Part shown: one piece after another, positions 1 through 54,106 of the stretch | Position numbering within the stretch: the stretch's first letter is position 1 | Layout of the letters: each line of letters opens with the position of its first letter | Assembly (NCBI GenBank): GCA_036252695.1 | Contig: GCA_036252695.1_4122.1 | Length of the DNA: 64,000 nucleotides | DNA from: a phage | Strand: one strand, 5' to 3' | The notes under the pieces: model-generated | Databases searched by the model: none | The model's input: only the letters and a program-made list of their open reading frames with translations | Told to the model about the DNA's origin: nothing | Made by a program: the position numbers and the translations under genes

Positions 1-46
1 ACTGTATCATGTACTGTACCTAGCTTTCGTGTACTAAGAGAACAAT

Positions 47-232
47 ATGCATAAAGAATTCTACTTAAGCCATCTGGAACTAAACTCCCAAATGCTTATA
101 CCACTAAAACCAATAGATATCAAGGATAAGAAAAATACCAAACAATTCCACTACCACACACTATGTGCTATCAACCCAGATTATAATACATATAAACTGT
201 ACTACATTCTCGCCCTAATATATAGGTACTGA
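47..232 (+). CDS. small Tyr-rich protein, KE(F/Y)Y...LIYR tandem paralog 1
   Basis: ORF track; N-term MHKEFY, C-term LIYRY; no clear RBS. Confidence 0.3.
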   Translation: MHKEFYLSHLELNSQMLIPLKPIDIKDKKNTKQFHYHTLCAINPDYNTYKLYYILALIYRY

Positions 233-233
233 T

Positions 234-419
234 ATGCATAGAGAATACTATATACAATTTGTTAAAGGGAACTACAAACACGCCGTCCCCGTAAACCCCT
301 TAAATTCTAATGACCCAAGTACTATATTCTTGTTCCATGACGCAATACGTACAGTACTCAATACTAAAGATGAACAGGTGCAGTACGTATTCTTACTATT
401 ACTTATATACAGACACTAA
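234..419 (+). CDS. small Tyr-rich protein, tandem paralog 2
   Basis: MHREYY...LIYRH; paralog of neighbours. Confidence 0.3.
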   Translation: MHREYYIQFVKGNYKHAVPVNPLNSNDPSTIFLFHDAIRTVLNTKDEQVQYVFLLLLIYRH

Positions 420-424
420 CTAAT

Positions 425-634
425 ATGAATAAAGAACATAAAGAATTCTACTCCAAACACCTCAGCCCCTCAGAACAAATGTTTCTAAGGACTACAGCAC
501 CTTTAAGTACTGATACATATTTCGGCAGAGTATGCTACAATAATTGTATTCAAATGACTTTAAACGCAAACGCCAATAATAACAGTACTAATATGTACTC
601 CGGCATCATAGGTATACTATTTCTATATGAATAA
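425..634 (+). CDS. small Tyr-rich protein, tandem paralog 3
   Basis: MNKEHKEFY...; paralog. Confidence 0.3.
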   Translation: MNKEHKEFYSKHLSPSEQMFLRTTAPLSTDTYFGRVCYNNCIQMTLNANANNNSTNMYSGIIGILFLYE

Positions 635-809
635 AGAACATAAAGACTTCTACATAAGAAAACTAACATTCGTCCCCGTAAAAATATATAAAGAATGCGA
701 CCCAAGATTATACCTATGGCACTTCAATGAGTGCATAAAAGATTCTATATACCCTAAGAACTATAAAGAACAATTGTGCTCAGTACTAACACTAGTACTA
801 TCATATTAA
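627..809 (+). CDS. small Tyr-rich protein, tandem paralog 4
   Basis: MNKEHKDFY...LVLSY. Confidence 0.3.
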   Translation: MNKEHKDFYIRKLTFVPVKIYKECDPRLYLWHFNECIKDSIYPKNYKEQLCSVLTLVLSY

Positions 810-822
810 TAGAGATAATACT

Positions 823-1014
823 ATGCATAAAGACTATAAAGAGTACTATATAAGTAAACTAAAAGAAAACGAACAAGCATGGATTAACAATTTAATCCCC
901 CTGGCAATGACTCAATACGAATTTAATATGTGTACAAAGATTGTTTTAACTAGTAATGATATCTCTAATACGTACTACTTCCTATTAAGAGTACTATATG
1001 GTACTTTGAAATAA
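823..1014 (+). CDS. small Tyr-rich protein, tandem paralog 5
   Basis: MHKDYKEYYISKL...; shares EQAWI with paralog 6. Confidence 0.3.
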   Translation: MHKDYKEYYISKLKENEQAWINNLIPLAMTQYEFNMCTKIVLTSNDISNTYYFLLRVLYGTLK

Positions 1015-1025
1015 TAAGGTATACT

Positions 1026-1232
1026 ATGCAGAACATAAAAAACTATAAAGAGTACTATATAAGTAAACTACCACCGACTGACCAAGCATGGATTAGATCT
1101 ATAATAGTACTGGCATTTAATAGATATGCATTTAACAGATGCACAGAGATTGCTATAGACCCTTGTCCTATTAAAGAGAAGGCACAGTACAATCAGTACT
1201 ACTATATGTTAATGCTTATATATAGGAAGTAA
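1026..1232 (+). CDS. small Tyr-rich protein, tandem paralog 6
   Basis: KEYYISKLPPTDQAWI...LIYRK. Confidence 0.3.
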   Translation: MQNIKNYKEYYISKLPPTDQAWIRSIIVLAFNRYAFNRCTEIAIDPCPIKEKAQYNQYYYMLMLIYRK

Positions 1233-1299
1233 TTCAACATATAGACAGGGGAAGCTCCGTAGGGAAAGCATTGGACAGGCTTTAACATATGTTATATAT

Positions 1300-1346
1300 G
1301 TTAAAATTCAGCCTGCTCGACGTCTGAATTGTTAAAATTCAGCCTG
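1300..1346. repeat. direct repeat gttaaaattcagcctg x2
   Basis: Identical 16-mers at 1300-1315 and 1331-1346. Confidence 0.8.
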
Positions 1347-2359
1347 GACAAATGCGATCACTAGGATTCTCCCCAGGCTAAACCCCGTAATCATATGTAG
1401 TCATAAGTAATCATATATAAACATTTATATTAGCACCGTAGAATCACAGAATGATTATATATGATTCAGTACTGATTAGTATAGACAAGATTGCTCAAGA
1501 TTGCTCAAGAATGCTAGGGAAGGATTCAGTACTGCCCCAAAAGTATTCAGTACTGAAGGTGTCGATATCCCACTAAGTAGGCAGAGGAAGTCTGCCGTAC
1601 TTTGTAGTTTCCAAGCTCCTTTTCCATTTTGCAAATTACATCAAATGTAATCAAAAGTAATCACGCAATGATTAGTACTGAATTATTACTTTCACCTTAA
1701 TTACAATTACCCTTTTACCAGTCGGGGTAAAATTCAATTACCCCTTGAGGCTCCAGCAAAAAGTTGGTTAGTACTCCATCCTAAATCTCGATCCTAAAAA
1801 TTTTGGAGTACCTATGAAATAAAAGTTGGATCTTCGAAAGTTGAAATTTACGTTGGGACGTTTATGATTTGTGGGATATAATGATGTTTGTAGTCGGGTA
1901 GTTCTCAAGAATATCAGTACTGAAAGATGAAAGAAAGTTATTGACTTTATGATTCAGTACTGTATAATGTTCTACATAGCTTCAAGGGGTGATGAGTTGC
2001 TGCGAACAATTCATTTACTCTACCTACTGTCGTGAGACAGTACAGAAAAGATAGTTCCTCCTATTGGTGGTACATCTTTTTGAACCTCATATGAAAATCG
2101 TAATAACAGTACTGATATTAACAGAATGGTATCAGTACTGATTTTAATCTAAAGCATTATGCCACCAGCACAAGCTGGTGGATTCCCTCTAACAGTATTC
2201 AGTACTACATGATAGTCTTCATCCTCCTAGGGTAACATAGTGAGGGCTATGATGGCAGTACTGAATACTCCCTTTCAAAAGATAGATCTATGGTATAGTA
2301 CTGACGGATTTTGGGTGTAGTTACCCTGGGTGGATTTTGGACGTAGATATGTCTAGCCC

Positions 2360-2490
2360 TCCAGAAGTCTGGAAGTAAAGATGGCTATCCATCTAGACGG
2401 CTAAACGGCTAGATTTCTGGATGGCTAGACGTTTGGACGGCTAAACGGCTAGATGGTTACACGTCTGGAAGTATAGACGGCTAAATCAAA
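2360..2490. repeat. iteron-like interleaved direct repeats
   Basis: gacggctaaacggctagat at 2396-2414 and 2436-2454; agacggctaaatc 2475-2487; gtctggaagta 2367 and 2463. Confidence 0.7.
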
Positions 2491-3188
2491 ATTTTATTTT
2501 GTTTTTTCCAATAGTTCCCCTACCGCGTGGGGATAGTTTCCCCGCAGTATCTGGAGTTAGATTTTTCTGAATCTGGAATCATTATCTTATAAACTGGGGG
2601 CAATGTCAACGGCCTGGACGGATATTTTTAAAAATTTTTTTCAGTACTGAATTTTGGGCGTAACTATGCACCCGGTGGGCTTGAGTCTTTCTCGACTTGA
2701 TGGAACTATTATACAGTACTGAAAAAAATAAAGCAATACCCTGGAAGCAAAAAAGTTTTAATTAATTTGCTTGCTATCCTGGGCCGGACTATGGTACTAT
2801 ATTTCAGTACTGAGAAAGTGCGTTTACCTGCTAGGGTGCGGGAGTGTATCCTTTTTTTATATCTTGAATTTTGGGCGTAATTCCGCACCCTCTGGGGTTT
2901 CCGCTTTCTCGCGTCTATGTAGTAATTATACGCTTTTTCAGGATCAAGTCAATACCTAAAAACAAAATAATTGAAAATAATTTAACGCGTTTAAACGGCC
3001 CGTAAAGCCCTGGAATGATTGGAATGGTGCAAATGTATAGCTTAGGTGTATTAATGCGTTAGAATGCGTCTGAGGCCGTTTTATGGGGTGTAGTAGTGAT
3101 TTGGTTGATTCAGTACTGAATGATAGTACTGAATAATAGTTCCCCTATATAGAAAGAAAACTATTTTAAAAGTACATGTAGAAAGTAC

Positions 3189-3247
3189 TTGCAAACTATG
3201 TTTAAAGGCGTATAATGTTTTACATCGAGAGCGGGAACACTTCCCGC
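3189..3247 (+). promoter_or_regulatory. sigma70 promoter + 5' stem-loop cassette
   Basis: -35 TTGCAA 3189-3194, -10 TATAAT 3211-3216, hairpin gcgggaacacttcccgc 3231-3247. Confidence 0.75.
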
Positions 3248-3271
3248 TACACTTTAAAAGAGATTAATACG

Positions 3272-3634
3272 ATGGCGACCCAAATCAATAAAATTATTGC
3301 TAACCTGGTCAACTTCCGTGAAGAGATGAAAGGTCTTCCGGCTGAAACGGTAAAAATTCACATTTCAGCTTATCGGGAACTTATTACAATGTTGCCGCTT
3401 AAGCGTGAACAATACGCCGCTACCGTGATGCTTGATGCGATGATCCATAAGATGATCGCCAGTGATTTAACGATGGTTTATCAGTATATGGGCGAAAATT
3501 TCGCGGTGTATAGTAAACCAGTACCAGGAATGGAAAGTACAGAAGTATTACACGGTTTAAATTTAAAACAAGATGCATGGGATAATATGCCTCGTTTCCT
3601 GGTATGGGCTGACAGTGGCAAAATTTACGAATAA
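3272..3634 (+). CDS. hypothetical early protein
   Basis: ATG at 3272 downstream of promoter/hairpin; ORF track frame of 3215..3634. Confidence 0.65.
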   Translation: MATQINKIIANLVNFREEMKGLPAETVKIHISAYRELITMLPLKREQYAATVMLDAMIHKMIASDLTMVYQYMGENFAVYSKPVPGMESTEVLHGLNLKQDAWDNMPRFLVWADSGKIYE

Positions 3635-3648
3635 GTTTAATAAAGTAC

Positions 3649-3707
3649 TTGCAAACTAAGTTTAAAAGCGTATAATGTTTTACATCAGGTGGGGAATAGT
3701 TCCCCAC
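3649..3707 (+). promoter_or_regulatory. sigma70 promoter + 5' stem-loop cassette
   Basis: -35 TTGCAA 3649-3654, -10 TATAAT 3671-3676, hairpin gtggggaatagttccccac 3689-3707. Confidence 0.75.
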
Positions 3708-3727
3708 TATATAAGAGGATTAAAAAA

Positions 3728-3967
3728 ATGGCTAAATCAAAAATGTTCTTAGGTCACAAAAACAAAACTCATTGGAATGTAAGCCTTTGGATTAATAACG
3801 ATGAGGCATTGTATCGGCTGGCCCAGGACTTTATTGCCGCCAATACTAATCGTAATGATGCGGCCCGTCATATGATGCTATTTTTAGAACAGACTGGGCA
3901 AGATAAAACTCCAGACGGCTTTAAGTATAGCACTACTGCGATCCGTGCGGCGATGGTTGGAATGTAA
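3728..3967 (+). CDS. hypothetical early protein (paralog of 5770..6009)
   Basis: RBS aagagga; shares GHKNKTHWNVSLWINN and TPDGFKYSTTAIRAAMVGM with 5770 gene. Confidence 0.7.
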   Translation: MAKSKMFLGHKNKTHWNVSLWINNDEALYRLAQDFIAANTNRNDAARHMMLFLEQTGQDKTPDGFKYSTTAIRAAMVGM

Positions 3968-4409: not shown

Positions 4410-4640
4410 ATGACTAATATGTATATGACTGAAGTTAAAACTGTAAAAGATACTACCACGAATAAAACTACTTACTTACAGCGGATCTGCGGTGTATGGC
4501 AACGTATCAGCAAATCAAAGTACTATAAATTAACATCATATGCAAACCGTTCGGATTCATTCAGTACTGAAATAAAAGGTAATAAAGTACACCAATACGG
4601 CACTTATTATTATTATAGCCTGGACGCGATTGCAGTATAA
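4410..4640 (+). CDS. hypothetical early protein
   Basis: RBS ctggagt; ORF track. Confidence 0.6.
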   Translation: MTNMYMTEVKTVKDTTTNKTTYLQRICGVWQRISKSKYYKLTSYANRSDSFSTEIKGNKVHQYGTYYYYSLDAIAV

Positions 4641-4887
4641 GCAGTTTACAAATCTTTACAATTGCCGGTATTGACTTATTTTGTCAGTACTGGCATAATG
4701 TATTCATTGGCAGATAAGCCGTAGCCCATAGGGTGCGGGAGTGTATCTATAGAAAAAGTAGTTTAGTATAGTTACAATTGTGCACCCGGTGGGTTAGCTG
4801 TTGTCATGGGGTATATTATGCCAGTACTTGATAATGCTGTCAATACTTTTTTAATATTCAGTACTGAAAACTATTTTTAAAAAGTAC

Positions 4888-4915
4888 TTGCAAACTATGT
4901 TTAAAGGCGTATAAT
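4888..4915 (+). promoter_or_regulatory. sigma70 promoter (upstream of conserved 80-nt leader)
   Basis: -35 TTGCAA 4888-4893, -10 TATAAT 4910-4915. Confidence 0.65.
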
Positions 4916-4921
4916 GTTTTA

Positions 4922-5000
4922 CATCAGGACGGGGAACGAAATAAGTAACTTCCCGTTAAGTAGCCCAGGAGTAAGGCACACGAAAAACTCCCCTGATAAA
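4922..5000 (+). ncRNA. candidate small RNA / structured leader, copy 1
   Basis: ~80 nt between two tandem promoters; near-identical copy at 15897-15976; no ORF. Confidence 0.25.
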
Positions 5001-5005
5001 ATAGT

Positions 5006-5035
5006 TTGACAAATGTTTTTTTAAAAGCGTATAAT
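5006..5035 (+). promoter_or_regulatory. sigma70 promoter
   Basis: -35 TTGACA 5006-5011, -10 TATAAT 5030-5035. Confidence 0.65.
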
Positions 5036-5067
5036 ACTTACATCAACTACTGAATGAGGGTTACAAA

Positions 5068-5679
5068 ATGAAAACTATCACTACTACTACTTATGTTATG
5101 GATTTTTCTGAATTGAACGCAGAACAAAAAACGTCAGCTATCGAACTGGTTCGGGATCGTGAGCGTTCATGCGGTGATTATTTCTTTTCTGAGGGCGTAT
5201 ACGAATACTATAAAGAAACAATTTTGCCGGAGTATGGCATTGATGACGCTGATTTGCAATTCAGTGGTTTTTGGTCGCAAGGTGACGGTGCATCAATTAG
5301 TACTGACCACGTTGACGCAGTGAAGTTTTTACGTAAGGTAAGAGCATTAACTAAGTATCGCTCAATCCGGCACCTGCTGAATGAAGATGATTTGGCGATG
5401 AGTGTAAAGCGTTATCACTACCACTACTCGCATGAGAATACTGTAAGCGGGTACATTGAATCGGCTTACACTGATTTAACCGCAAAACAAGAAACGTTAG
5501 TTAATGAGCTTGAGGAACTACTCACTGACACTATTCGTGAATTGTCCCGCAAGTTGTACCGTGATTTAGAGAATGCATATGAGGATCAATTCACTACTGA
5601 AAACATTACGGCACTGATTGAGGGTAACGAATATCAATTCAATGTTATTGATGGCGTAGTAGAATCAATCGAATATTAA
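5068..5679 (+). CDS. hypothetical acidic protein (203 aa)
   Basis: RBS gaggg; ORF track. Confidence 0.7.
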   Translation: MKTITTTTYVMDFSELNAEQKTSAIELVRDRERSCGDYFFSEGVYEYYKETILPEYGIDDADLQFSGFWSQGDGASISTDHVDAVKFLRKVRALTKYRSIRHLLNEDDLAMSVKRYHYHYSHENTVSGYIESAYTDLTAKQETLVNELEELLTDTIRELSRKLYRDLENAYEDQFTTENITALIEGNEYQFNVIDGVVESIEY

Positions 5680-39885: not shown

Positions 39886-40356
39886 ATGACATTACAGAGT
39901 TCATTGGAAAAAGCAAAGAAGATTCATGAGTACATGAATATGGCAAAAGAAGGTTCAGTTTACGGTGTTTTCAAAGACACAAGTACTCAATATTATGTGC
40001 CGGATAACCTCCTTTATAATGACTGCTCAGATACAGAAACGTGCGTACTGGATACCGACCCTAATGATTATGAATGCTTCATTAATATGCATAATGAGTA
40101 CATGGTCTATATTAATGATACAGATACCATCTACAGTACTGATAGCGATTCCGATGACATTATAATTCCGAGTGAAGTACTGGAAGGTCCGTGGGATAGT
40201 GAAGAGTATTACTTCCAACAAAGTACTGTATACGATAATGAAGTACTTGATGTTATTATAATTATGTGGTACTTTAAAAGTATTGGTTCTGGGAACTTCT
40301 ATTTCGATTACAAATACGTAAAGAAAACTGTAGATAACGGTATTAACAGGGGTTAA
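39886..40356 (+). CDS. FQ-motif family protein (subtype D, EEYYFQ...WYFK)
   Basis: VLEGPWDSEEYYFQQSTVYD...IMWYFKS...FYFD. Confidence 0.6.
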   Translation: MTLQSSLEKAKKIHEYMNMAKEGSVYGVFKDTSTQYYVPDNLLYNDCSDTETCVLDTDPNDYECFINMHNEYMVYINDTDTIYSTDSDSDDIIIPSEVLEGPWDSEEYYFQQSTVYDNEVLDVIIIMWYFKSIGSGNFYFDYKYVKKTVDNGINRG

Positions 40357-40357
40357 A

Positions 40358-40828
40358 ATGAGTTTAGAAAGAGCATTAGAGATTGCGAAGTTAATTGATT
40401 TATGCAGCAAAGAAATTGTAGCAAATTGTCTCAATGGATATCTATTCAAGGAAGGTAAATCTTATTGTCGAATGAGATACGATGACAGTAGTGAGTACAT
40501 TCACATGTATGAAGAAAACTTAGATTCTTCTGAAACAACACTCAATGGGTGTGATGTTAATTTGGAAGATAATTACATGTACTTCTGTCGTGATGCTGAT
40601 ATTTTAATACAAGATTCTGACATTATATCTGGTGCAGCAGAGAAACATCTTCCGTATTCAGTACTGGATAATGACTGGGGAAGTGAAGAGTACTACTTCC
40701 AGCAGAATACGATCTACGCAGAAGATGTACTTGACAAGCTTGTCATTCTGTGGTACTTTAATAATACAGATTGTCCTAGCTTCTATTTGGACTTGGATCT
40801 ACTACGAGTTATTAAAGAGGATATATGA
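40358..40828 (+). CDS. FQ-motif family protein (subtype D)
   Basis: VLDNDWGSEEYYFQQNTIYA...LWYFNN. Confidence 0.6.
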   Translation: MSLERALEIAKLIDLCSKEIVANCLNGYLFKEGKSYCRMRYDDSSEYIHMYEENLDSSETTLNGCDVNLEDNYMYFCRDADILIQDSDIISGAAEKHLPYSVLDNDWGSEEYYFQQNTIYAEDVLDKLVILWYFNNTDCPSFYLDLDLLRVIKEDI

Positions 40829-41268
40829 GTTTAGCAAGTGCACTTGAACTAGCACACAGAATACATCACTTCCACGATAACATAAAAAGTGGGTTCTATG
40901 GTGATAAAGTAAGTGCATTTGGTGATGAGTATTATCTATCAGGTATAAAGACATACTCTGATGATATTTTACTTATGGGACAGGATAAAGACAATACTAT
41001 ACAGTACTCTTCATGTAGTCAATATACTAATTTTTTTGTATATATTCCAGGTACTAAGATTACTTTTGACACAACAAATACACCTGTTGACTTCGGGGTA
41101 CTTGATGGCCCGTGGGGTACTGAAGAGTATTACTTCCAACAGAGTCTCATTTTTAACCAAGAAATTCTTGATTCCTTGGTTGTGTTGTGGTACTTTAAGG
41201 AATTGAATTTTGAACCATTCTTTCTTGACTGGGGAGCATGTGAATATTTAAGTACAGGGGATTTGTAA
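40825..41268 (+). CDS. FQ-motif family protein (subtype D)
   Basis: VLDGPWGTEEYYFQQSLIFN...LWYFKE. Confidence 0.6.
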   Translation: MSLASALELAHRIHHFHDNIKSGFYGDKVSAFGDEYYLSGIKTYSDDILLMGQDKDNTIQYSSCSQYTNFFVYIPGTKITFDTTNTPVDFGVLDGPWGTEEYYFQQSLIFNQEILDSLVVLWYFKELNFEPFFLDWGACEYLSTGDL

Positions 41269-41756
41269 TGTCATTACAAAGTGCATTGAAAGAAGCAAAG
41301 AAGATTCATGAGTACATGATTATGGTACAGGAAGGTTCAGTACCAGGTGTATATAAAACATCTGATACTGAATTTTTTGTAAAAGACCGTGACGATTATG
41401 ACGAGTCCGAGATATGTGCAGAAACATTAGTACTGCACACTGATACTGGTGACAGTGATAACTGTGAATATCATATGTACAATCAGTACATTAGTTATTG
41501 TCGTAATGAAGATATTACCATCTACAACACAGATAGTGATGCTGATGACACTATCATTCCTTATTCAGTACTGGAAGGACCGTGGGATAGTGAAGAATAT
41601 TACTTCCAGAATAGTACGTTGTACAATGAAGAAGAATTAGATGTTATTGTAATTATGTGGTATTTCAAAAGTATTGACTCCAGTAGTTTCTATTTTGATT
41701 ATGAATATGTAGAGAATACTGTAGGAGAAGGTAATGTCATTACAAAGTGCTCTTGA
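41268..41756 (+). CDS. FQ-motif family protein (subtype D)
   Basis: VLEGPWDSEEYYFQNSTLYN...IMWYFKS. Confidence 0.6.
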   Translation: MSLQSALKEAKKIHEYMIMVQEGSVPGVYKTSDTEFFVKDRDDYDESEICAETLVLHTDTGDSDNCEYHMYNQYISYCRNEDITIYNTDSDADDTIIPYSVLEGPWDSEEYYFQNSTLYNEEELDVIVIMWYFKSIDSSSFYFDYEYVENTVGEGNVITKCS

Positions 41757-42186
41757 AAAAGCAAAAGAACTACATGGATACTTTGACGATATAAAGGCAG
41801 GAAAGTTCAAAGAAGTGTACAAAGCCGAGAACGGCAACTACTACAAGGATGAAATGTATAATAACTCCGTTGGTGTAAGGGTTATTCTTGGGTTGAATTC
41901 CAATAGTCCTATATCGTTTTCTGAATACAATAGAGATGCAGAATTTATTAGTTATGTTGAAAATGGTAGCATTCGTTTTATTAATCGCAAAAAACCATTA
42001 ATTTTGAATTATGAAGTACTGGAAGGTCCGTGGGATAGTGAAGAGTATTACTTCCAAAACAGTACTGTATACGATGATGAAGTACTTGAAGCATTAGTTA
42101 TTATGTGGTACTTCAAGAGTGTTAGCTGCCCTCGATTTTATTTGGATTTCGAAGAACTTCGTAAAGATCCAGAAGGTATAGAATGA
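41734..42186 (+). CDS. FQ-motif family protein (subtype D)
   Basis: VLEGPWDSEEYYFQNSTVYD...IMWYFKS. Confidence 0.6.
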   Translation: MSLQSALEKAKELHGYFDDIKAGKFKEVYKAENGNYYKDEMYNNSVGVRVILGLNSNSPISFSEYNRDAEFISYVENGSIRFINRKKPLILNYEVLEGPWDSEEYYFQNSTVYDDEVLEALVIMWYFKSVSCPRFYLDFEELRKDPEGIE

Positions 42187-42497
42187 AAAACTTATTCAGT
42201 GTTCAGTACGTTCCTGGTGAAATTGGTTTATTGTATCTATTTGACCATGATAATTCATTATTACTAGTAGTGAAGAAATGCCAAGCTAGTTCGTTTGTTG
42301 AATACATTCACGATAGTGAATACATTCCTGATTTCCTAGAGTGTGATTATCACGATGAACATGAATCATTTATTTTTCAGGAATCACTCGTATGGGATAA
42401 ATCGATCAACTTCTTTACGTTAATTGAATTACAAAAGCAGGTGAAGTATCATTGGGATTACTTAATTACACAGGATTACATTGAGATTGAAACATAA
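42183..42497 (+). CDS. FQ-motif family protein (B)
   Basis: HESFIFQESLVWD. Confidence 0.55.
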   Translation: MKNLFSVQYVPGEIGLLYLFDHDNSLLLVVKKCQASSFVEYIHDSEYIPDFLECDYHDEHESFIFQESLVWDKSINFFTLIELQKQVKYHWDYLITQDYIEIET

Positions 42498-42805
42498 TGA
42501 CAAAAAATGAATTTGATTCACTTTGTACGGTTTATAATTCATTGACAGAAATACCTGACTTTATTAATTACATTTCAGCTTTAAATCAAATTATGCATAG
42601 TTTTGAACAATCGTTTGAAGAGAAATATGCAGGTAGAAAAGTTCTATGTCATATGTCAATGTACTTAGGAGATGGTGAGCCTTACACTACCAGTACTACA
42701 TGTGAAATAAAAAAATATAATATATTATTGGGGACAATAGAATTCAAGGTATCCAATGGTGGTAGTTATATGTACTTTAGAGATGGAGTGGTTGAATTAT
42801 TATGA
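42497..42805 (+). CDS. hypothetical protein
   Basis: ORF track; no family motif. Confidence 0.45.
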   Translation: MTKNEFDSLCTVYNSLTEIPDFINYISALNQIMHSFEQSFEEKYAGRKVLCHMSMYLGDGEPYTTSTTCEIKKYNILLGTIEFKVSNGGSYMYFRDGVVELL

Positions 42806-43251
42806 GTTACGAAAGTGCAATCAAGAAAGCAAATGATATTCTAAAAGTTGTTCAGTTCTTCAAAGAAAATCCTGAATACCTAGATGATGAAAACCATGAT
42901 CACGATGAGAGATTGAGACGAAAAATTGTCGCTTTATTTGACACTAATGCGGATAATTATAGTCTAATTGAGTTAGCATACGATTATATTTCATTGAACC
43001 GAAACGGACATTTAGTTAATATAGAAAGACATGCGACTGAAGAATCTTTTAAAATTTCAGACATTTTATCCCTGAGTACTGAAGAAGGGTACTTCCAGGG
43101 TAGTACTGTTTATGAACAAGGAACGCTTGACAATCTATGCACATTTAGTGTAATATATCAGAAATCAGTACTGGATGTATTTTATCTTGACACTGCTGAA
43201 CTGGATACACTAATCAATTTTGTTACTACTGAAGAGGCCACATTTGAGTGA
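42802..43251 (+). CDS. FQ-motif family protein (D-like)
   Basis: TEEGYFQGSTVYE. Confidence 0.55.
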   Translation: MSYESAIKKANDILKVVQFFKENPEYLDDENHDHDERLRRKIVALFDTNADNYSLIELAYDYISLNRNGHLVNIERHATEESFKISDILSLSTEEGYFQGSTVYEQGTLDNLCTFSVIYQKSVLDVFYLDTAELDTLINFVTTEEATFE

Positions 43252-43784
43252 TGAAAGTTAACATCAATGACTTTGATGCATTACAAGATTTATCAAAAAA
43301 GATTCGTATCATCGTACCAGTACTCAAAAAATGCAGTACTGGTTTAATTGATCCTAGTACTGTTGTTAATGAGAAGTACAATTTTCATCGTGTATTACAG
43401 GGTACAGGTGCATTTCAGAAGTGTGATGTACGTGAGAAACACGTAATTGATACATCATTGTTTTCTATTGGTGCACCTGTGTCGAATAATTCTATTTTCC
43501 TGGATAACGCAGGAAATATTCAACAATTAACATTTAAGAAAAGGAAAAAGAACAATAACATTGGTGTGTACGCGATGAAGTGGGGGCAACCTGATTTGAA
43601 GCGTGAAATTCACATCCCTAAGTACAATTACAATGCATTCGACGAACAGTGTTTTCAACTATCGTGTACTGACCCTGACTATGCAATCATTCAGTTCTAT
43701 ATGGAATTGCAGATAGCATTTAACAGTAATTTGTATATTAACTTATTGGCAATGAACATCGATGAAGTATTCAAAAACATTTAA
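43248..43784 (+). CDS. FQ-motif family protein (B-like)
   Basis: DEQCFQLSCTDP. Confidence 0.45.
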   Translation: MMKVNINDFDALQDLSKKIRIIVPVLKKCSTGLIDPSTVVNEKYNFHRVLQGTGAFQKCDVREKHVIDTSLFSIGAPVSNNSIFLDNAGNIQQLTFKKRKKNNNIGVYAMKWGQPDLKREIHIPKYNYNAFDEQCFQLSCTDPDYAIIQFYMELQIAFNSNLYINLLAMNIDEVFKNI

Positions 43785-43980
43785 TCGAATTGAATACATG
43801 AGAACTGTGAGTGCAGTGTGGGACATATGGTTCACTACTAAACCAAAAATGGATTACCATGACTTTAAGCTCTTGTTCTTCGTTGGCTCTAACAAACAGG
43901 ATGTTGCAATGAAGGGTTATATTCAGCACTTACAGGAACTAATACAGAAGAGGGTTAATGAAAATAATAGACCAAGATGA
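43762..43980 (+). CDS. LGT..Q-family small protein (A-like)
   Basis: FVGSNKQDVAMKGYIQHLQELI. Confidence 0.45.
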   Translation: MKYSKTFNRIEYMRTVSAVWDIWFTTKPKMDYHDFKLLFFVGSNKQDVAMKGYIQHLQELIQKRVNENNRPR

Positions 43981-44149
43981 TATTGCTAAACTATTCAATA
44001 TATATTCTACTAGAATGATGCAAACAGACTCATATAGTACTGAATTCAAAGAGTTGAAAGTACTGATGTACTTGGGAACCCAATATCAGGAACAAGTTAT
44101 TTTGGAATATATTAATTCGTTGAAGAAGGATATCCGTTATGTACGATGA
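43958..44149 (+). CDS. LGTNYQ-family small protein (A)
   Basis: YLGTQYQEQVI. Confidence 0.5.
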   Translation: MKIIDQDDIAKLFNIYSTRMMQTDSYSTEFKELKVLMYLGTQYQEQVILEYINSLKKDIRYVR

Positions 44150-44699
44150 TTTAGATCTTGCGTTTGAACGTATGGTAATTTTAATGCAATGTGCAGAAAT
44201 GCATGAAACAATCCGTCGCACCAAAGGGATTGAATATACAAGTAAACTATTCTCATACGAAAGTCGTCGAGGGATGGATCATTTTTACTGCACTGATTGT
44301 TCAAAGTTTTCAGTACTGAAATATTATCATCCTACTGTTTCCAATAATAGTTTAATATCCACATATGACGGTGATCTGTTTAGTGTAATGTATGACACAT
44401 TACATCCATCAATTTCAATCTATAAAGATTGCGATAGTAGTTTATCGTATATAATTGAAGATTACTTATCTCCTAATACTGAAGAGAATATTTTTCAGAA
44501 CAGTGTGTTGCATGATGAATTAAGTATAAAATGCATCTATATGTTCAATAAGTTAAAACAGTACGCCGATAATAATTACTTAATTGATAAGTTAGCAGTA
44601 TTGTCTGTTTCCGTTTTTAATACAAATGACATTGATATGAAATACTATAATGAGATTTGTAAAGTACATCATATGTATAAGGAACTATTATGTCAATAA
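44139..44699 (+). CDS. FQ-motif family protein (B)
   Basis: EENIFQNSVLHD. Confidence 0.55.
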   Translation: MYDDLDLAFERMVILMQCAEMHETIRRTKGIEYTSKLFSYESRRGMDHFYCTDCSKFSVLKYYHPTVSNNSLISTYDGDLFSVMYDTLHPSISIYKDCDSSLSYIIEDYLSPNTEENIFQNSVLHDELSIKCIYMFNKLKQYADNNYLIDKLAVLSVSVFNTNDIDMKYYNEICKVHHMYKELLCQ

Positions 44700-45292
44700 A
44701 TGCAAATAAATGTTGTAGTGCAGATGTGCATTTGTTTTTTAAGAAATTAGCAAATGATATTATATATATGCAGGAAATGATTTATCACAAACGAGCGGAT
44801 TTAGAAAAAGCATTAGTACAGTTCTCATTTATGCTTGATGGTGATATATTTCTAGAGAGTGATGCATTGCGAATAGTATTAGACAAAAATGCTAAAAGAT
44901 TTTTATTTCATATAGATAATAAATTATGTTCCTCCGTATGTCGTACTTTTTATAATCGTGATTCGGACTTATATCAATTCCTTTATTCCAAAGGTGCAGT
45001 AGAAGCATCATATGGTGATGGTTATGCCCTAGGAAAGAGTATTCCATTTATGAAATCATTTAAAATAGAACACATCAGTACTGATGAAGATGCAATGTTC
45101 ACAAATGATATAACTATGGGACGTGAAGATGCAATGCGATATATTACAAATTCTATGCATACATTCTTTCAACGAACAGAATTTGATAATGTATATATAT
45201 CAAATGTAAATATTTTCAATGACCTGTGTCAGTACTTGAGAAGTGTTTGTGACTTCGATGAAAGTTATTGTAAGCTATACACTGAGGTATAA
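44690..45292 (+). CDS. hypothetical protein (200 aa)
   Basis: ORF track; no clear family motif. Confidence 0.45.
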   Translation: MSINANKCCSADVHLFFKKLANDIIYMQEMIYHKRADLEKALVQFSFMLDGDIFLESDALRIVLDKNAKRFLFHIDNKLCSSVCRTFYNRDSDLYQFLYSKGAVEASYGDGYALGKSIPFMKSFKIEHISTDEDAMFTNDITMGREDAMRYITNSMHTFFQRTEFDNVYISNVNIFNDLCQYLRSVCDFDESYCKLYTEV

Positions 45293-45297
45293 AACAA

Positions 45298-45660
45298 ATG
45301 AACACATTAAGTATTACATACTATACAACTAAAAAATTAGTTACTTGTTTAATATCTTTGAAGACAAACCATGATGATATGTTTGATATGGCTGCATATG
45401 AATTAGAATTATCAGAAGATGGCTTCAAGAGCTATGAAGTATATAGCTATGTCCGTGAAGATGTAATTGACACTACACTAATGCAAGAGGATGAGTTATT
45501 CCAAGAAAGTTTAGTATGGGATAATAAGTACGATTGTAACTTTGATTTCTTATGTTTAATCCAGAAAGAAATGAAAAGAATCTTTGATAATTATCCAATC
45601 AAACGTTTCAGTACTGCACCTGAGCAATATAAAAGGATTATATTCACCTATGAAGATTGA
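45298..45660 (+). CDS. FQ-motif family protein (B)
   Basis: EDELFQESLVWD. Confidence 0.55.
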   Translation: MNTLSITYYTTKKLVTCLISLKTNHDDMFDMAAYELELSEDGFKSYEVYSYVREDVIDTTLMQEDELFQESLVWDNKYDCNFDFLCLIQKEMKRIFDNYPIKRFSTAPEQYKRIIFTYED

Positions 45661-46027
45661 ATTTGAAGTTATTACATATAGTATAGGTGATGGTATCCGT
45701 TGCTATGTACAAGCAAGGCATATGGTTCCTGATGATAAACTGTCACCCAAAAGCTTCTGTATCACACAAGATCTCTTAGATATCAACGGAGAGTACAAGT
45801 ACATATATTATCTTACTAAGGGTTATTGTAGTACACGTGGTTTTAATATTGTAGCTGTTTCTAGAGATGAAATTGATGATTTAACTGAGTACGGGGAAGA
45901 AGAGATGTTCCAGTACAGTACTGTTTTTAATGAACTGGATGTGTTTCTGTTACGAAAAATACAACACATTATGCAAGAATGTTTGCATCATAAGAGAGGT
46001 ATTGTATGCGACGTGAATCTGAATTAG
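45650..46027 (+). CDS. FQ-motif family protein (B)
   Basis: EEEMFQYSTVFN; ATG 45650. Confidence 0.5.
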   Translation: MKIEFEVITYSIGDGIRCYVQARHMVPDDKLSPKSFCITQDLLDINGEYKYIYYLTKGYCSTRGFNIVAVSRDEIDDLTEYGEEEMFQYSTVFNELDVFLLRKIQHIMQECLHHKRGIVCDVNLN

Positions 46028-46347
46028 TTAAAGTAATGTACGCTACTCATATTAAACTACTACTTGTTAAATTTGATTATAATAAAAAACATAATGATTT
46101 CTATACTTTAATTCGTGATGAAAATACATTCTCCTTGCGATGCAACAATATACCCTTGAAGATAAATGATTTTACTTCACTTGACGAGGGGGAATTATTT
46201 CAAGAATCATTAGTTTTTAATAGTAATATAAAAATTGATATAGAAGTTATTAAAAAATACCAGATTCTATTGAACAAAATTATGAATTGTTATCCATGTG
46301 AAATAGGTGGTCATATGCAGTTCAAATCAAAAATGTATGAATTATGA
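46006..46347 (+). CDS. FQ-motif family protein (B)
   Basis: EGELFQESLVFN. Confidence 0.55.
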   Translation: MRRESELVKVMYATHIKLLLVKFDYNKKHNDFYTLIRDENTFSLRCNNIPLKINDFTSLDEGELFQESLVFNSNIKIDIEVIKKYQILLNKIMNCYPCEIGGHMQFKSKMYEL

Positions 46348-46354
46348 GGTTTAT

Positions 46355-46891
46355 ATGTTAGATAAAAAAATGAACTCTGGAACCCAATATAATCATCTTA
46401 AGTTGGATACATTCGAATCAGCTATCAGTACAGCACAAGATATAATTGATATTATCAAGTTCATTAAAGAAGATAAGTTCAAATGTGTGAAAATACTAAA
46501 TCGTTCAATGTACCGTGATAAAAATATTCATGTATCAGTACGTAGACCGAAAGATCAAGAAAGTGGGAGAGATTTCTATAACAACAGTGAGCAGTTCGAA
46601 TGTGAATATGATCCAGAATTTAGAGGTGGTTTCATGTGTTACAGTATGAAGGATACCTCACACATTGAGATACGTTCATCGAAAGGTGGCATACGTACAT
46701 TAGAGTTTATTGATATAGTTTTAAATCAGGAATACTACTTTCAACTATCATTATTGTTTCCTGCATACGATTTAGGAGTTCTATTCATGTATAAGTACTT
46801 TCATGAGCACTGGAATGAAGACTTCTATCTGGACTTAGAAGATTACCAATTAGTTTGGGAAGAAATGGTAGAACTTCGCAACCACTCTTGA
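46355..46891 (+). CDS. FQ-motif family protein (D-like)
   Basis: RBS tgaggt; NQEYYFQLSLLFP...FYLDLEDY. Confidence 0.55.
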   Translation: MLDKKMNSGTQYNHLKLDTFESAISTAQDIIDIIKFIKEDKFKCVKILNRSMYRDKNIHVSVRRPKDQESGRDFYNNSEQFECEYDPEFRGGFMCYSMKDTSHIEIRSSKGGIRTLEFIDIVLNQEYYFQLSLLFPAYDLGVLFMYKYFHEHWNEDFYLDLEDYQLVWEEMVELRNHS

Positions 46892-46917
46892 CACCCACCG
46901 ATTTTTTGTGATATAAT
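46888..46917 (+). promoter_or_regulatory. sigma70 promoter internal to the array
   Basis: -35 TTGACA 46888-46893, 18-nt spacer, -10 TATAAT 46912-46917. Confidence 0.6.
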
Positions 46918-46950
46918 CCCTTTATATTAATTGTAAAGGGTTATAACACA

Positions 46951-47427
46951 ATGTCCAAAGACCTATCATTTAGCAATGCACAAAAAATAGCAAAAGACAT
47001 TATCAGGGTTTATAAATTCCTTGCGAATGTTACTGAAGATTTTTTAATTGATAAAAATAAAGTTATTAAACGAAATGGATATCTTTCCTTTATGGATGGG
47101 TTACTCTATAGCTCAGATGAATCAACTTGTAGTATTAGAGTGCTTGATGAAGTACCAAGTGGTGATTTTATTTCATACCATTTCCCAAGTTCAGATAATT
47201 TCAAATACTACAATCATCTTCTTATAAATGAAGCATTTGATACGATTGTAATTAACACTGAAGAAGAGTTCTTCCAGTACAGTACTGTGTATCCAGAGAG
47301 GATTGTTTTCAGTTCAGTGATTTTAACAGCCCTTAAAAATGAACTAAATTCCGATAGTGATCATTTCTACTTGGACCTGAACAATGTCGATTGTATTATT
47401 GAGTACCTGGAGAAAAATGGTTTATGA
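46951..47427 (+). CDS. FQ-motif family protein (D-like)
   Basis: EEEFFQYSTVYP...FYLDLNNV. Confidence 0.55.
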   Translation: MSKDLSFSNAQKIAKDIIRVYKFLANVTEDFLIDKNKVIKRNGYLSFMDGLLYSSDESTCSIRVLDEVPSGDFISYHFPSSDNFKYYNHLLINEAFDTIVINTEEEFFQYSTVYPERIVFSSVILTALKNELNSDSDHFYLDLNNVDCIIEYLEKNGL

Positions 47428-47909
47428 TTACTACAGAATATGATTACTATGGTGTTTTAGAATTTACAGAAAATATCTATCGCATTGCAAAGGAGTTCAG
47501 AAGTCCTAAGCCTTTTGGTGGAATGCCTTTTGGTGGTATGTTTCAATACGATGAGTTCAGTTCATCTAAAGGAAGACTAGCATTTACTAATGGTAGAGGT
47601 AATCAAATCTACGCGGAGTACTTTGATGATAATGACTTTCATTACAAAGCCGAATACATTTCATATTGCCCTGGGTCTGATTTGAAGATTAATATTGATA
47701 CATTTAGAGAAGCAGTATTTGTTCCGTATAATGATTTAGTCTTCATGTCAGAGGAAATGTACTTTCAGGGTTCTTGTATTCATGATGTAAAAGTACTTAA
47801 TGCTATGTTATTTTATGGTGCACTACTTAATCATTACAAATACAATCAACGATTCTTTTTAGATTTAGCAGTCTACTATAAATGCGTGGATTATTTGAAT
47901 GCAAAATAA
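47424..47909 (+). CDS. FQ-motif family protein (D-like)
   Basis: ATGA coupling; EEMYFQGSCIHD. Confidence 0.55.
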   Translation: MITTEYDYYGVLEFTENIYRIAKEFRSPKPFGGMPFGGMFQYDEFSSSKGRLAFTNGRGNQIYAEYFDDNDFHYKAEYISYCPGSDLKINIDTFREAVFVPYNDLVFMSEEMYFQGSCIHDVKVLNAMLFYGALLNHYKYNQRFFLDLAVYYKCVDYLNAK

Positions 47910-48261
47910 GAAAACAATTCAGTACATGACTGATGGTTCTGAATACTTTGTTTCAAGATATGTAATCAACTACAACCATTATGTAACCTATATTCCAGAG
48001 TACAATCAATTTTATATTCAGATTTATCAAAATAATGGAAAGATAAATGATATATATTCAGAAATAAAAATCCCTGATTATAGTACTTTATCAGAAGAGG
48101 AATTGTTTCAGGAGAACACTATAAGTACTGAAGATGTGTACGAAATAATGGAATACCAAAAGGTACTTAAACATTTTCATGAAGCAAATGATATACAAAT
48201 AGATATTGTTAAACCGTGGTGTTACAATACATATGAGGTAAATTATGTTAGAAATGATTAA
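47899..48261 (+). CDS. FQ-motif family protein (B)
   Basis: EEELFQENTIST. Confidence 0.55.
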   Translation: MQNKKTIQYMTDGSEYFVSRYVINYNHYVTYIPEYNQFYIQIYQNNGKINDIYSEIKIPDYSTLSEEELFQENTISTEDVYEIMEYQKVLKHFHEANDIQIDIVKPWCYNTYEVNYVRND

Positions 48262-48658
48262 AATTATGCAACGCTGTCTTGTTGATCAACACGGGGTATA
48301 TGGATATCGTTTAAGTGCTCCTATTGACAAAAATAAAACAACCTATGTAAGCTATAATGCTGTACATGGATTTGATATATTCATTGATGCCAACAATAAA
48401 ATCAAACAAGCTAAGGATGTGTCTATAATGACCCCTGATGAGTTATTCCAGTACAGCTTAGTTCTTCCTACATGTATCGATTTACAACGTCTAGGAGCGA
48501 TACAGAAGGTTTTACGCGAACATAAAGTACAACCCAATAAAGTCACACACATTCCAGAAACAATCTTCAAAACCATAGAAGTAGAAACTCCTGATTATAT
48601 GTTAAGTGATGATGAGTACTACGAAAAACACTTCCCTGGTAAAGTTTGGAGAGACTAA
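48245..48658 (+). CDS. FQ-motif family protein (B)
   Basis: PDELFQYSLVLP. Confidence 0.55.
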   Translation: MLEMIKIMQRCLVDQHGVYGYRLSAPIDKNKTTYVSYNAVHGFDIFIDANNKIKQAKDVSIMTPDELFQYSLVLPTCIDLQRLGAIQKVLREHKVQPNKVTHIPETIFKTIEVETPDYMLSDDEYYEKHFPGKVWRD

Positions 48659-49149
48659 TGAACCGAAAGTACAGAGAAACTATGAAGTTCGCTAAGGAGT
48701 GTTTAGAAGTGTTTGAGTTCATCAATGCTCATAAAGATTTACTCCATAGATACATTGCAATCAGTGAGACAGATGACCATAGGTACATATGTTCTCGAAT
48801 TCAAGATAAGATATATAAGATTGTGTTCTCGGAAACATACACAGATACATCTAATTCACTATATGATTTTGCACGTACTGATTACGTTTCATACAAATCT
48901 TGGTCTGATAGTATTAAAATTGTGCACAAGCAAAATACATTTTATTCTTTTCTTACGGACATTTCCGAAGAAAGTTACTTTCAAAACAGTTTAATTTATA
49001 CAGAAAAAGAACTCAAAATGTTATATATTATGTCGTACTTTAAAAAGTACTGCAAATTTAATACATTATCTTTTGAGATTTCTGCAATGAAAGTATTCAT
49101 TAAAAATGTAAAAGAATTAAAGAGGGCTTTTAATGTACATAGAAAATGA
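48646..49149 (+). CDS. FQ-motif family protein (D-like)
   Basis: EESYFQNSLIYT. Confidence 0.55.
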   Translation: MERLMNRKYRETMKFAKECLEVFEFINAHKDLLHRYIAISETDDHRYICSRIQDKIYKIVFSETYTDTSNSLYDFARTDYVSYKSWSDSIKIVHKQNTFYSFLTDISEESYFQNSLIYTEKELKMLYIMSYFKKYCKFNTLSFEISAMKVFIKNVKELKRAFNVHRK

Positions 49150-49675
49150 GAATGTAAAATGCATTACTGAAATTTGTATAAAATTAATGAAAATTTTCAT
49201 TAACCCAAAATACAAAAAACGTTCATTACATCATAATATTGATGAGCATTGTACCATTAATATACTAGGTAGTATTCTTGATGTAAAATATGATGGTAGA
49301 ATGTTATTTGGCATAAGAGAAGAGAAAATAGATGATGCATTCTTTTCCTGTAAAGATAAATTTGAACCTTCTGATTATAAAGTAATTATTCGTGATGATA
49401 GCATCTACATTAGTAGTGATTATTCAAATTACTTCGATAAAATATACAATGAAAACGTTGACTACCATTATGAAATGATAGATTTACCAGTAACAGACAT
49501 TGATATGGAGAGAATCAAATTTTCATTATCAGATAATGAGTACTTAGGTATACAAACATATTATTCACTACAAGGAAAGATTCCACCTGCTATGTATATA
49601 AGGATTGAGATTGGTAATGTATTCAATGATAAGGTTATATCTATTGCTGATAAAATATTGAGGGTTGAATTATGA
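49133..49675 (+). CDS. hypothetical protein (180 aa)
   Basis: ORF track; no clear family motif. Confidence 0.45.
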   Translation: MYIENENVKCITEICIKLMKIFINPKYKKRSLHHNIDEHCTINILGSILDVKYDGRMLFGIREEKIDDAFFSCKDKFEPSDYKVIIRDDSIYISSDYSNYFDKIYNENVDYHYEMIDLPVTDIDMERIKFSLSDNEYLGIQTYYSLQGKIPPAMYIRIEIGNVFNDKVISIADKILRVEL

Positions 49676-50235
49676 ATATCAATGATTACCAATTTCATAG
49701 GCTTGAATTTCGTCATTGTGTTGCATTTGCAAAAACATTGATGTGCATCATTGACACTCTTTCATCCAAACAATTTCGTAAGGATAATGATTTATTTCTG
49801 AAAAAAGGTCGTGTAACATCAACCGATATCGGTATTGAACTATTTGTTGATATCAGTGTTGATACCGGAGACAGTACAAGGGTTGGTTGTATAGGTCATA
49901 TTGGTACACATTGCTTCACATGGAATCCAAATACAAGTCAAGTACGAATTGATTATAGAAATTCACGTTGGGTTGATCTTAGTACTGAATCAGATTTAGA
50001 ATCAGCTATGTTCCAGCTAAGTTTAATTCACAATCCTAATGAACTTCTTTACATTATTACTTTCAGTTATCTGTTACAAAACTACGATAATCCATCAGGA
50101 TTTTTCATAGAATCAGATATAGATGAAATTATGGAAGAGATTCCAAGTTTAAAGAATATTCTCGAAGAAAAAGATTTCTATGAAGACTTCAGAGATTTAT
50201 ACGACATGCACTTGGAGTTATTTAAGAATGGATAA
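49672..50235 (+). CDS. FQ-motif family protein
   Basis: ATGA coupling; ESAMFQLSLIHN. Confidence 0.55.
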   Translation: MNINDYQFHRLEFRHCVAFAKTLMCIIDTLSSKQFRKDNDLFLKKGRVTSTDIGIELFVDISVDTGDSTRVGCIGHIGTHCFTWNPNTSQVRIDYRNSRWVDLSTESDLESAMFQLSLIHNPNELLYIITFSYLLQNYDNPSGFFIESDIDEIMEEIPSLKNILEEKDFYEDFRDLYDMHLELFKNG

Positions 50236-50746
50236 AGATGATATTCTAATTAGACTAATTAATAGTTTAATAAAGTTCTCAAATAATGATGTCGATACAT
50301 ACAAAGTGGGGGATATTGAATTTAAATCATTTGGTATGTACGGTGAGGATAAAACATATTATGCGTCAATGAAATTTCAAGATTTTCACGAGATGTTAAT
50401 ATCGTTATCATATGAAGATGTTGATCCAAGATGGAGTTCCAGTATTTCACTATCGAGAATGGTAATTCGTAGTAAGCATCGTTATATTTCGTCAAAGAAT
50501 ACTCCTAACTTGATTAATATTGTGTTGAATGAAAATACAAATCCCCTATCTAAACATGATATCGTACCGTTAACCGATGAAGTTATTTTTCAATTGAGTA
50601 CCATTTGTGATGAAGATGTGATATCATGTATGAAAATTTATGAGAAGGTTGGGAGTGATATTCCCATGAACTATTACCTAACTATAGATGGAACGTACCT
50701 TCGAGATGAGGTTCTAGCGTACATCGACAGTGTTTTACCAAAATAA
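50228..50746 (+). CDS. FQ-motif family protein
   Basis: DEVIFQLSTICD; ATG 50228. Confidence 0.5.
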   Translation: MDKDDILIRLINSLIKFSNNDVDTYKVGDIEFKSFGMYGEDKTYYASMKFQDFHEMLISLSYEDVDPRWSSSISLSRMVIRSKHRYISSKNTPNLINIVLNENTNPLSKHDIVPLTDEVIFQLSTICDEDVISCMKIYEKVGSDIPMNYYLTIDGTYLRDEVLAYIDSVLPK

Positions 50747-50772
50747 AGACCCGTATGGGTCTTTTTGTGTTT
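50747..50772 (+). terminator. intrinsic terminator
   Basis: agacccgtatgggtct hairpin + ttttgtgttt. Confidence 0.8.
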
Positions 50773-50833
50773 ATGGCTTTACAAGAGCATTCAGGTGTGT
50801 TATACTTGATTTTAACTAGAGTTGGAGGAATCT

Positions 50834-54045: not shown

Positions 54046-54050
54046 ATTCG

Positions 54051-54077
54051 TACCAGGGGTTGACTCTGGTATTTTTG
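54051..54077 (+). terminator. intrinsic terminator
   Basis: taccag...ctggta hairpin + tttttgt. Confidence 0.55.
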
Positions 54078-54106
54078 TATGATACATTGTCCTAAAGGAG
54101 AATTTT

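Follow-up and report, generated by a model that had tools for sequence, protein, structure and literature searches.

Diverged tandem genes beside the genome end of Asteriusvirus jumbo phages: a coding multigene family with a possible early role towards the host

Do the diverged tandem repeats found near the physical end of a jumbo phage genome encode proteins, and, if they do, what could the phage use such an array for? The question was raised by the first positions of a 64,000-nucleotide stretch of phage DNA (GenBank assembly GCA_036252695.1, contig GCA_036252695.1_4122.1; hereafter the window), where a first-pass annotation made from the letters alone had noticed six tandem units of about 195 bp, each preserving an open reading frame (ORF) of about 60 amino acids rich in tyrosine. 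This organisation was confirmed with slightly adjusted figures, as window 47-1232 contains six ATG-initiated ORFs of 60-69 amino acids, placed head to tail on the + strand, with start-to-start distances of 187-203 bp and a period of about 196 bp. They are listed below together with a partial neighbour, the E-value of their match to the protein family PHROG 11711 and the ratio of non-synonymous to synonymous divergence (pN/pS), derived for each unit from the counts of its orthologue cluster.

2..37, + strand: 3' end of a further family gene, the seventh, reduced by the window start to 11 codons and a stop (LYHVLYLAFVY)
47..232, + strand: unit 1, 61 amino acids; PHROG 11711 E = 3.3e-12; orthologues in 6 other phages; pN/pS about 0.70
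234..419, + strand: unit 2, 61 amino acids; PHROG 11711 E = 2.1e-9; pN/pS about 0.39; four helices predicted by AlphaFold (mean predicted local distance difference test, pLDDT, 87.7)
425..634, + strand: unit 3, 69 amino acids; PHROG 11711 E = 1.6e-9; pN/pS about 0.54
627..809, + strand: unit 4, 60 amino acids; PHROG 11711 E = 2.5e-6; pN/pS about 0.12
823..1014, + strand: unit 5, 63 amino acids; PHROG 11711 E = 5.3e-14; pN/pS about 0.20; 47% identical to unit 6
1026..1232, + strand: unit 6, 68 amino acids, final gene of the array; PHROG 11711 E = 1e-18; pN/pS about 0.49; helical AlphaFold model (pLDDT 73)

The units have indeed diverged strongly, as first noted, with 57% identity per DNA column and 25-49% identity between the proteins, and Tandem Repeats Finder reported no array of about 195 bp in the window because the units are too diverged. 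Units 5 and 6 still recognise each other in BLASTP (E = 1e-18), and the pairwise likeness of units 1 and 4 is confined to the N-terminal motif. Homology among the six is real, as judged from their matches to PHROG 11711, which run from end to end in 6/6 units (E between 1e-18 and 2.5e-6, profile positions 1-2 to 58-62 of 62). The N-terminal signature KE(F/Y)Y of the first-pass annotation held in all units when widened to [KR][ED][FY]Y (HKEFY, HREYY, HKEFY, HKDFY, YKEYY and YKEYY in units 1 to 6), while its C-terminal counterpart (L/V)(I/L)Y(R/G) was present in four units and absent from two (LIYRY, LIYRH, LFLYE, LVLSY, VLYGTLK and LIYRK). The supposition that the array continues upstream also proved right: window 2-37 corresponds to the C-terminus of the gene directly upstream of unit 1 in phages WPEC3 and 121Q (...YHTLYLAFVY), and related phages carry 12-15 more copies upstream.

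Coding status was clearly supported by the pattern of substitution. Events were counted along minimum spanning trees on codon alignments of 25 orthologue clusters, drawn from the window and eight related phages. We observed 285 synonymous and 460 non-synonymous events (pS = 0.318, pN = 0.123), corresponding to an in-frame pN/pS of 0.39 and to a synonymous excess with a binomial P of 7e-33, whereas pN/pS rose to 1.03 and 1.26 when these alignments were shifted to the +1 and +2 frames. The selection on a protein product that had been proposed is thus upheld by an excess specific to the annotated frame. Non-coding tandem repeats would be expected to change at equal rates at the three codon positions and to be free of frame constraint, equal rates being what the first-pass annotation had named as evidence against coding; the three positions carried 220, 171 and 354 changes, respectively (chi-square P = 2e-16). 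Each window unit taken separately had a pN/pS below 1 (range 0.12-0.70), and pairwise Nei-Gojobori estimates agreed, with dN/dS (non-synonymous over synonymous substitution rates) mostly between 0.1 and 0.8. Along the gene, pN/pS was 0.28 in the N-terminal quarter, 0.46 in the middle and 0.31 in the final 14 codons. Synonymous divergence was 0.44, 0.30 and 0.28 in these same segments; its value at the 3' end is close to that of the middle, and no strong constraint at the DNA level is therefore visible there.

Other lines of evidence pointed in the same direction. Open stretches of at least 59 codons on the + strand cover 96% of the bases of the region, against a mean of 7% and a maximum of 57% in 2000 first-order Markov simulations, which never contained more than three such stretches; the chance of an open 60-codon frame at this composition is about 0.01. 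When trained on 59 long ORFs of the window, a codon-usage model preferred the annotated frame for 6/6 units. The codons of the K-E-[FY]-Y motif differ from unit to unit (GAA TTC TAC, GAG TAC TAT, GAC TTC TAC, GAA TAC TAT), and the conservation therefore acts at the protein level. The six units are real protein-coding genes under moderate purifying selection, and we regard it as very probable that they form a coding tandem family. We also considered that the EYY/QYY motifs could be a by-product of an over-represented AGTACT/CAGTACTG DNA motif, and rejected this, most units encoding the motif without AGTACT and the array containing no CAGTACTG.

The array has an unusual composition. Its GC skew is negative (C 19%, G 13%), in contrast with the positive skew of the rest of the window; G occupies the first codon position in 17% of codons in the array versus 28% in other + strand genes, and C the third position in 24% versus 14%. 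This is probably the reason why many units escape gene callers. Public records indeed annotate only part of the family genes, about 5/16 in PBECO4 and 11/21 in vB_Ec-M-J, and likewise in phAPEC6 and ph0011; all units in these under-annotated records are open and match the family profile.

The extent of the family was determined by searching an iterated hidden Markov model (HMM), built from the six units, against all + strand ORFs of the window and of eight related loci. This census identified 131 members in nine genomes, with 13-21 per complete array and a length of 59-70 amino acids after trimming of N-terminal read-through; all 131 ORFs are open. The members tile each block with spacers of mostly 1, 8 or -8 nt, the sole unit-sized gap being filled by one embedded unrelated gene. 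This conserved gene, found in the middle of every complete array (e.g., 4632-5291 of the WPEC3 locus, L001), encodes 219-224 amino acids and belongs to PHROG 29152, a family with no assigned function; a possible reading of the next small gene overlaps its 3' end. The possibility that the 219-amino acid gene is a family member with an insertion was rejected, in view of its match to PHROG 29152 and of a non-significant match to the family HMM. For the first gene of the array, of 75 amino acids, kinship is marginal at most (four-sequence search, E = 0.0024). In the WPEC3 locus, the copy at 3269-3457 has an aberrant C-terminus (...GVPGTSTLT, versus ...GVPGTEYFNIIRLITLP in the vB_Ec-M-J and A4 orthologues) and may be frameshifted; no other of the 131 copies shows visible damage.

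Beyond these loci, a word-indexed search of 5.8 billion proteins returned 27 relatives. HMMER, run exhaustively on 1.84 billion representatives, gave little beyond these and revealed a narrow family, with 30 clusters in all, some 27 of which are of the 59-69-amino acid type. The three long HMMER hits (P0040, P0043 and P0049) were treated as spurious, with short multiple matches and, in P0040 and P0049, visible repetitiveness. No match to the six units was found in Pfam, PADLOC or PDB sequences. A tblastn search with a divergent member from phage JNE01 matched only 33 Asteriusvirus records, and the family was confined to Escherichia and Salmonella Asteriusvirus records; it is specific to Asteriusvirus within the reach of sequence methods. 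The genes are already catalogued, as GenBank hypothetical proteins and as PHROG 11711, with no assigned function: the entries 121Q gp250-265, WPEC3 CDS077-095 and fEgEco12 g597-g613 are the same family as the window units. The literature that we searched contained no description of the size, variability, selection or position of this array.

Comparison between phages clearly showed how the array changes. At 60% amino acid identity, the 131 proteins fall into 46 clusters, whose order and content differ in every genome. Units 1 and 2 have counterparts in WPEC3 with 99.5-100% DNA identity. Of the window array, just 18% aligns with that of JNE01 (72% identity), whereas JNE01 and the window are 87% identical in the non-coding stretch next to the array and 95% identical in the genes downstream. 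Unit 2 has an orthologue even in this distant phage (75% nucleotide identity, dN/dS 0.31), and unit 4 is missing from WPEC3, UE-S1 and A4. In WPEC3, the start of unit 4 is fused in frame to unit 5, and the last array gene of 121Q is an in-frame mosaic of units 5 and 6. Such chimeras suggest unequal recombination, with the conserved 5' portions of adjacent units as the sites of exchange. The array is thereby shown to evolve by birth and death, the retained copies being under moderate purifying selection (pN/pS about 0.4).

The window originates from an Asteriusvirus jumbo coliphage of the PBECO4/121Q/phAPEC6 group: its first 3 kb matched 42 phage records at 80-99% identity and positions 30-50 kb matched 36, all of them Escherichia or Salmonella Asteriusvirus jumbo phages of 320-386 kb (including PBECO4, 121Q, phAPEC6, WPEC3 and vB_Ec-M-J) except for a single Erwinia record. 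In annotated relatives, the array appears as a co-directional block of small hypothetical protein genes, flanked on one side by divergent RCC1-like genes and on the other by a gene-free stretch of about 2 kb. The termini of fEgEco12 have been determined with PhageTerm and confirmed by restriction digestion, with a direct terminal repeat of 20,993 bp (PMC13070987). Bases 1-400 of fEgEco12 align to window 1576-1975 with 99% identity, placing the left physical genome end at 1576, and its repeat ends at the equivalent of about window 22,750. In vB_Ec-M-J, for which a terminal repeat of 21,525 bp is stated, the boundary lies 275 bp past the last array gene. The window array ends at 1232, 344 bp before the start of the terminal repeat. 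Its genes are therefore the final ones of the unique portion of the genome, and they are transcribed towards the terminal repeat. Upstream of the array, 3-4 tandem RCC1-like ("DNA condensation") paralogues lie on the - strand, divergent from it (1-2549 in the WPEC3 locus and 1-3875 in locus L002); their number differs among phages, and two of them are virion proteins in phAPEC6.

The proteins themselves are rich in tyrosine (10.6%, versus 6.5% for the other genes of the window), in line with the first description, and poor in Gly, Asp, Glu and Val, with isoelectric points (pI) of 4.4-10 and a median of 8.0. From a structural point of view, AlphaFold2 modelled unit 2 (47-sequence alignment, pLDDT 87.7, predicted template modelling score 0.70) as four helices spanning residues 3-7, 12-17, 28-43 and 47-58, and unit 6 as a compact helical domain with a lower pLDDT of 73. 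The family is accordingly predicted to consist of soluble, compact four-helix domains. Conserved positions are aromatic and hydrophobic and lie in the core, namely the Tyr of [KR][ED][FY]Y and the Y-x-x-L-x-L-I of the last helix, while the surface and the central loop are variable. The hydrophobic C-terminus extends over about 10 residues only and is modelled as a packed helix. The membrane-spanning segment expected of small membrane proteins of the holin, spanin or exclusion type was not found (top 19-residue Kyte-Doolittle mean of 0.97 among 45 representatives). Structural hits were generic, and neither structure nor sequence yielded an informative relative; no similarity to a characterised defence or anti-defence protein was detected at either level, nor was any helix-turn-helix or other DNA-binding family.

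Expression signals were sought at the head of the array, outside the window, where eight phages share, with 90% identity, the 100 nt that separate the RCC1-like gene from the first gene of the array. In all eight, including the divergent JNE01, this region contains an invariant TTGACA-N17-TAC(T/A)AT followed by AAGGAG before the start codon, and the promoter spacer holds the palindrome CAGTACTG (CTGGACTG in JNE01; 2580-2608 in the WPEC3 locus). The invariant TTGACA-N17-TACTAT constitutes an indication, at the sequence level, of early transcription by the host RNA polymerase. In the related phage CBB, RpoD-like promoters cluster before short ORFs that are regarded as early genes, including in the terminal repeat (PMC5259590). 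Within the block, a Shine-Dalgarno match of at least 4 nt precedes 48% of the 131 family genes, versus 69% of other window genes and 10% of random positions; the ribosome-binding sites first described as weak are thus weaker than those of other genes, but far above random expectation. Gene junctions consist of spacers of 1-10 nt or of overlaps, such as the 8 nt shared by the 3' end of unit 3 and the start of unit 4, an overlap seen 12 times across the loci. Such weak sites combined with short spacers or overlaps suggest translational coupling. At the conserved C-terminal Arg/Gly codon (TAT AGG TAC TGA TATG), part of the codon doubles as the AGGT Shine-Dalgarno of the next gene.

These observations can be assembled into one explanation. 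The whole block, i.e., 13-21 genes plus the unrelated 219-amino acid gene, would form a single polycistronic unit, read by the host RNA polymerase from the conserved sigma-70-type promoter at its head; ribosomes would load at the strong AAGGAG of the first gene and move down the array by translational coupling. We consider this early-operon part reasonably probable. The proteins would then act as diversified accessory binders or inhibitors of host factors inside the cell, in host takeover or anti-defence, and different members would serve on different host strains. This reading of the function is proposed because a conserved scaffold with a variable surface, an early-looking promoter, content turnover and purifying selection coincide; it remains tentative, and we hold an accessory family of intracellular host-factor binders to be possible rather than probable. 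A more specific version, slightly more doubtful again, would see the array as a recombination-shuffled library of small four-helix binders, with 13-21 variants per phage co-expressed at the start of infection, and with different members neutralising different defence or strain-specific factors. Taken as a whole, the combination of a coding family, an early operon, birth-and-death evolution and host-factor binding appears to us a little better than an even bet.

Several points weigh against this explanation. Matches resembling sigma-70 promoters are not enriched in the region (26, versus 31 expected in shuffles), so that the call of the head promoter rests on invariance and position; for the same reason, no internal sigma-70 promoter is claimed. 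The literature search retrieved no expression data, and no transcriptome, for any Asteriusvirus, and timing, operon structure and translation are all read from the DNA. A crude segment test found no part of the genes with pN/pS above 1, and hence no arms-race signature. Finally, the annotated array genes of phAPEC6 (gp540c-548c) are absent from its virion proteome table, where a 4.7-kDa protein and the RCC1-like neighbours are present, but this argument against a structural role is weak, as phAPEC6 annotates only 8 family members (in addition to the 75-amino acid first gene and the gene of the 219-amino acid type), about half of its units.

Other explanations were weighed against the same evidence. 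The units could be non-coding DNA repeats tied to the genome terminus, acting as packaging, replication or recombination signals, with fortuitous ORFs; the proximity of the array end to the terminal-repeat boundary (344 bp), the AT-richness of the units, their weak Shine-Dalgarno sites and their partial annotation in several GenBank records would all fit. This is largely refuted by the synonymous excess limited to the annotated frame, and 131/131 open units, where chance would leave about 1% open, a codon model favouring that frame, a confidently predicted fold, a motif spelled with differing codons and the lack of strong DNA-level constraint in the last 14 codons leave it barely credible. Coding copies could also be dispensable products of tandem duplication, adding mainly genome length and having little or no individual function. 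Genome growth by tandem duplication has indeed been proposed for jumbo phages (Hua et al., 2017, PMC5646251), an idea repeated in the phAPEC6 paper; copy number varies freely between 13 and 21, and a pN/pS of 0.4-0.7 in some units is fairly relaxed. Against this stand the purifying selection on the family as a whole, the intactness of the copies, and the fact that paralogues diverged to 20-35% identity have kept their length, motifs and predicted fold, which indicates long-term maintenance rather than decay; we consider this explanation unlikely.

Rather improbable too, and marginally more so, is a role as virion-associated or packaged proteins, whether internal, ejected or partners of the RCC1-like proteins. 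The array adjoins the physical DNA end, and small size and variability are traits of internal proteins in other phages. Its RCC1-like neighbours gp549 and gp551 belong to the phAPEC6 virion proteome, but no annotated array protein does; moreover, the head promoter is of sigma-70 type with a CAGTACTG spacer, as in terminal-repeat promoters and unlike the ATAAATA late type of the related phage CBB, and the gene content is too variable for a fixed structural role. The least favoured of the protein-level alternatives is that of small nucleic-acid-binding or regulatory proteins acting on CAGTACTG or on the terminus region. This 8-bp palindrome occurs 68 times in window 1467-63973, versus 0.85 expected and a shuffle maximum of 3, and it is densest just downstream of the array (1467-22465), with 41 copies in the terminal-repeat equivalent of about 21 kb. 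A median pI of 8.0, reaching 10 in some members, and the position of the array beside the repeat boundary would be compatible with such a role, but the spread of pI from 4.4 reveals no consistent basic character, no DNA-binding family was detected among generic structural hits, and an invariant motif contrasts with hypervariable proteins.

As for known systems, the array displays the traits of a tandem multigene family, with adjacent, intact paralogues in the same orientation, frame-specific purifying selection, and turnover of copies and content accompanied by traces of recombination. The host-takeover module of Bacillus phage SPO1 consists of small early genes located in the terminal redundancy behind host-sigma-type promoters, and these genes do not form one paralogous family. 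The likeness lies in a block of many small genes near a genome terminus behind such promoters, and the SPO1 module can be taken as a template for accessory functions early in infection. By contrast, the present array lies just outside the repeat (array end 1232, repeat start about 1576), all its members are paralogues, and the two share no sequence similarity. The multigene families (MGF) of African swine fever virus (ASFV) and the gene "accordions" of poxviruses are terminal blocks of tandem paralogues whose copy number varies by unequal recombination and which have an accessory role in host interaction. Tandem paralogues near the ends of a linear genome and a strain-variable copy number are shared features; however, the viruses and proteins are unrelated, the host role of the present family is an inference, and no positive selection was detected in it. 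Closer to our phage, an array of ">30 very similar genes" has been reported in 121Q (Hua et al., 2017). Window 39,886-58,622 is occupied by a long series of + strand ORFs of 140-200 amino acids set back to back, which is probably that array, judging from ORF sizes. The series resembles the present one in phage group, in an origin by tandem duplication and in its co-directional, tightly packed genes of unassigned function, and differs from it in protein family and in proteins that are two to three times longer.

This analysis settles as real genes a set of short, G-poor ORFs with weak ribosome-binding sites, of which several public Asteriusvirus records (PBECO4, phAPEC6, ph0011 and vB_Ec-M-J) omit half or more. 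The array is the most variable part of an otherwise conserved region, its content being almost wholly different in JNE01 between flanks that are 87-95% identical. It is thus a natural first place to look for host-range or anti-defence determinants in phages isolated for E. coli therapy. The finding is ordinary in kind, as paralogue arrays of jumbo phages are well known and the family was already catalogued, and the example is uncharacterised but unsurprising. Should the doubtful idea of a shuffled binder library be true, the array would stand as the equivalent, in phages, of the multigene families at the genome ends of poxviruses and ASFV, and its members would be anti-defence proteins of a new fold family.

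The sequence that follows the array also presented several features. Window 1233-3214 comprises about 2 kb with no convincing gene, 81-93% conserved between phages; Rfam gave no match in window 1-3300. This stretch contains 11 copies of CAGTACTG and short tandem repeats, namely three copies of GTAATCATAA at 1387-1415, three of CAAGATTGCT at 1486-1515, and repeats of 16, 32 and 40 bp at 2394-2485. A hairpin, GGCAGAGGAAGTCTGCC, occupies bases 5-21 of the genome end (window 1576-1596) and is also picked up by a terminator scan; it could serve to end transcription of the array operon, belong to the terminase site, or do both. As regards the palindrome, some copies of CAGTACTG lie in promoter spacers and many within coding regions at 38-64 kb. 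A recurrent architecture associates TTGAC(A/T), 7-8 nt, CAGTACTG and then, directly, TATAAT or a close variant. The corresponding features are as follows.

1233..1575, no strand: non-coding stretch separating the end of the array from the equivalent of the fEgEco12 left end
1955, 4685, 10702, 13407, 14413, 15032, 19467, 21114, 21431: promoter-like sites with a CAGTACTG spacer, all in the terminal-repeat equivalent

Among these sites, clear TTGACA...TATAAT promoters are found, e.g., at 1955, 10702, 13407, 15032, 19467, 21114 and 21431.

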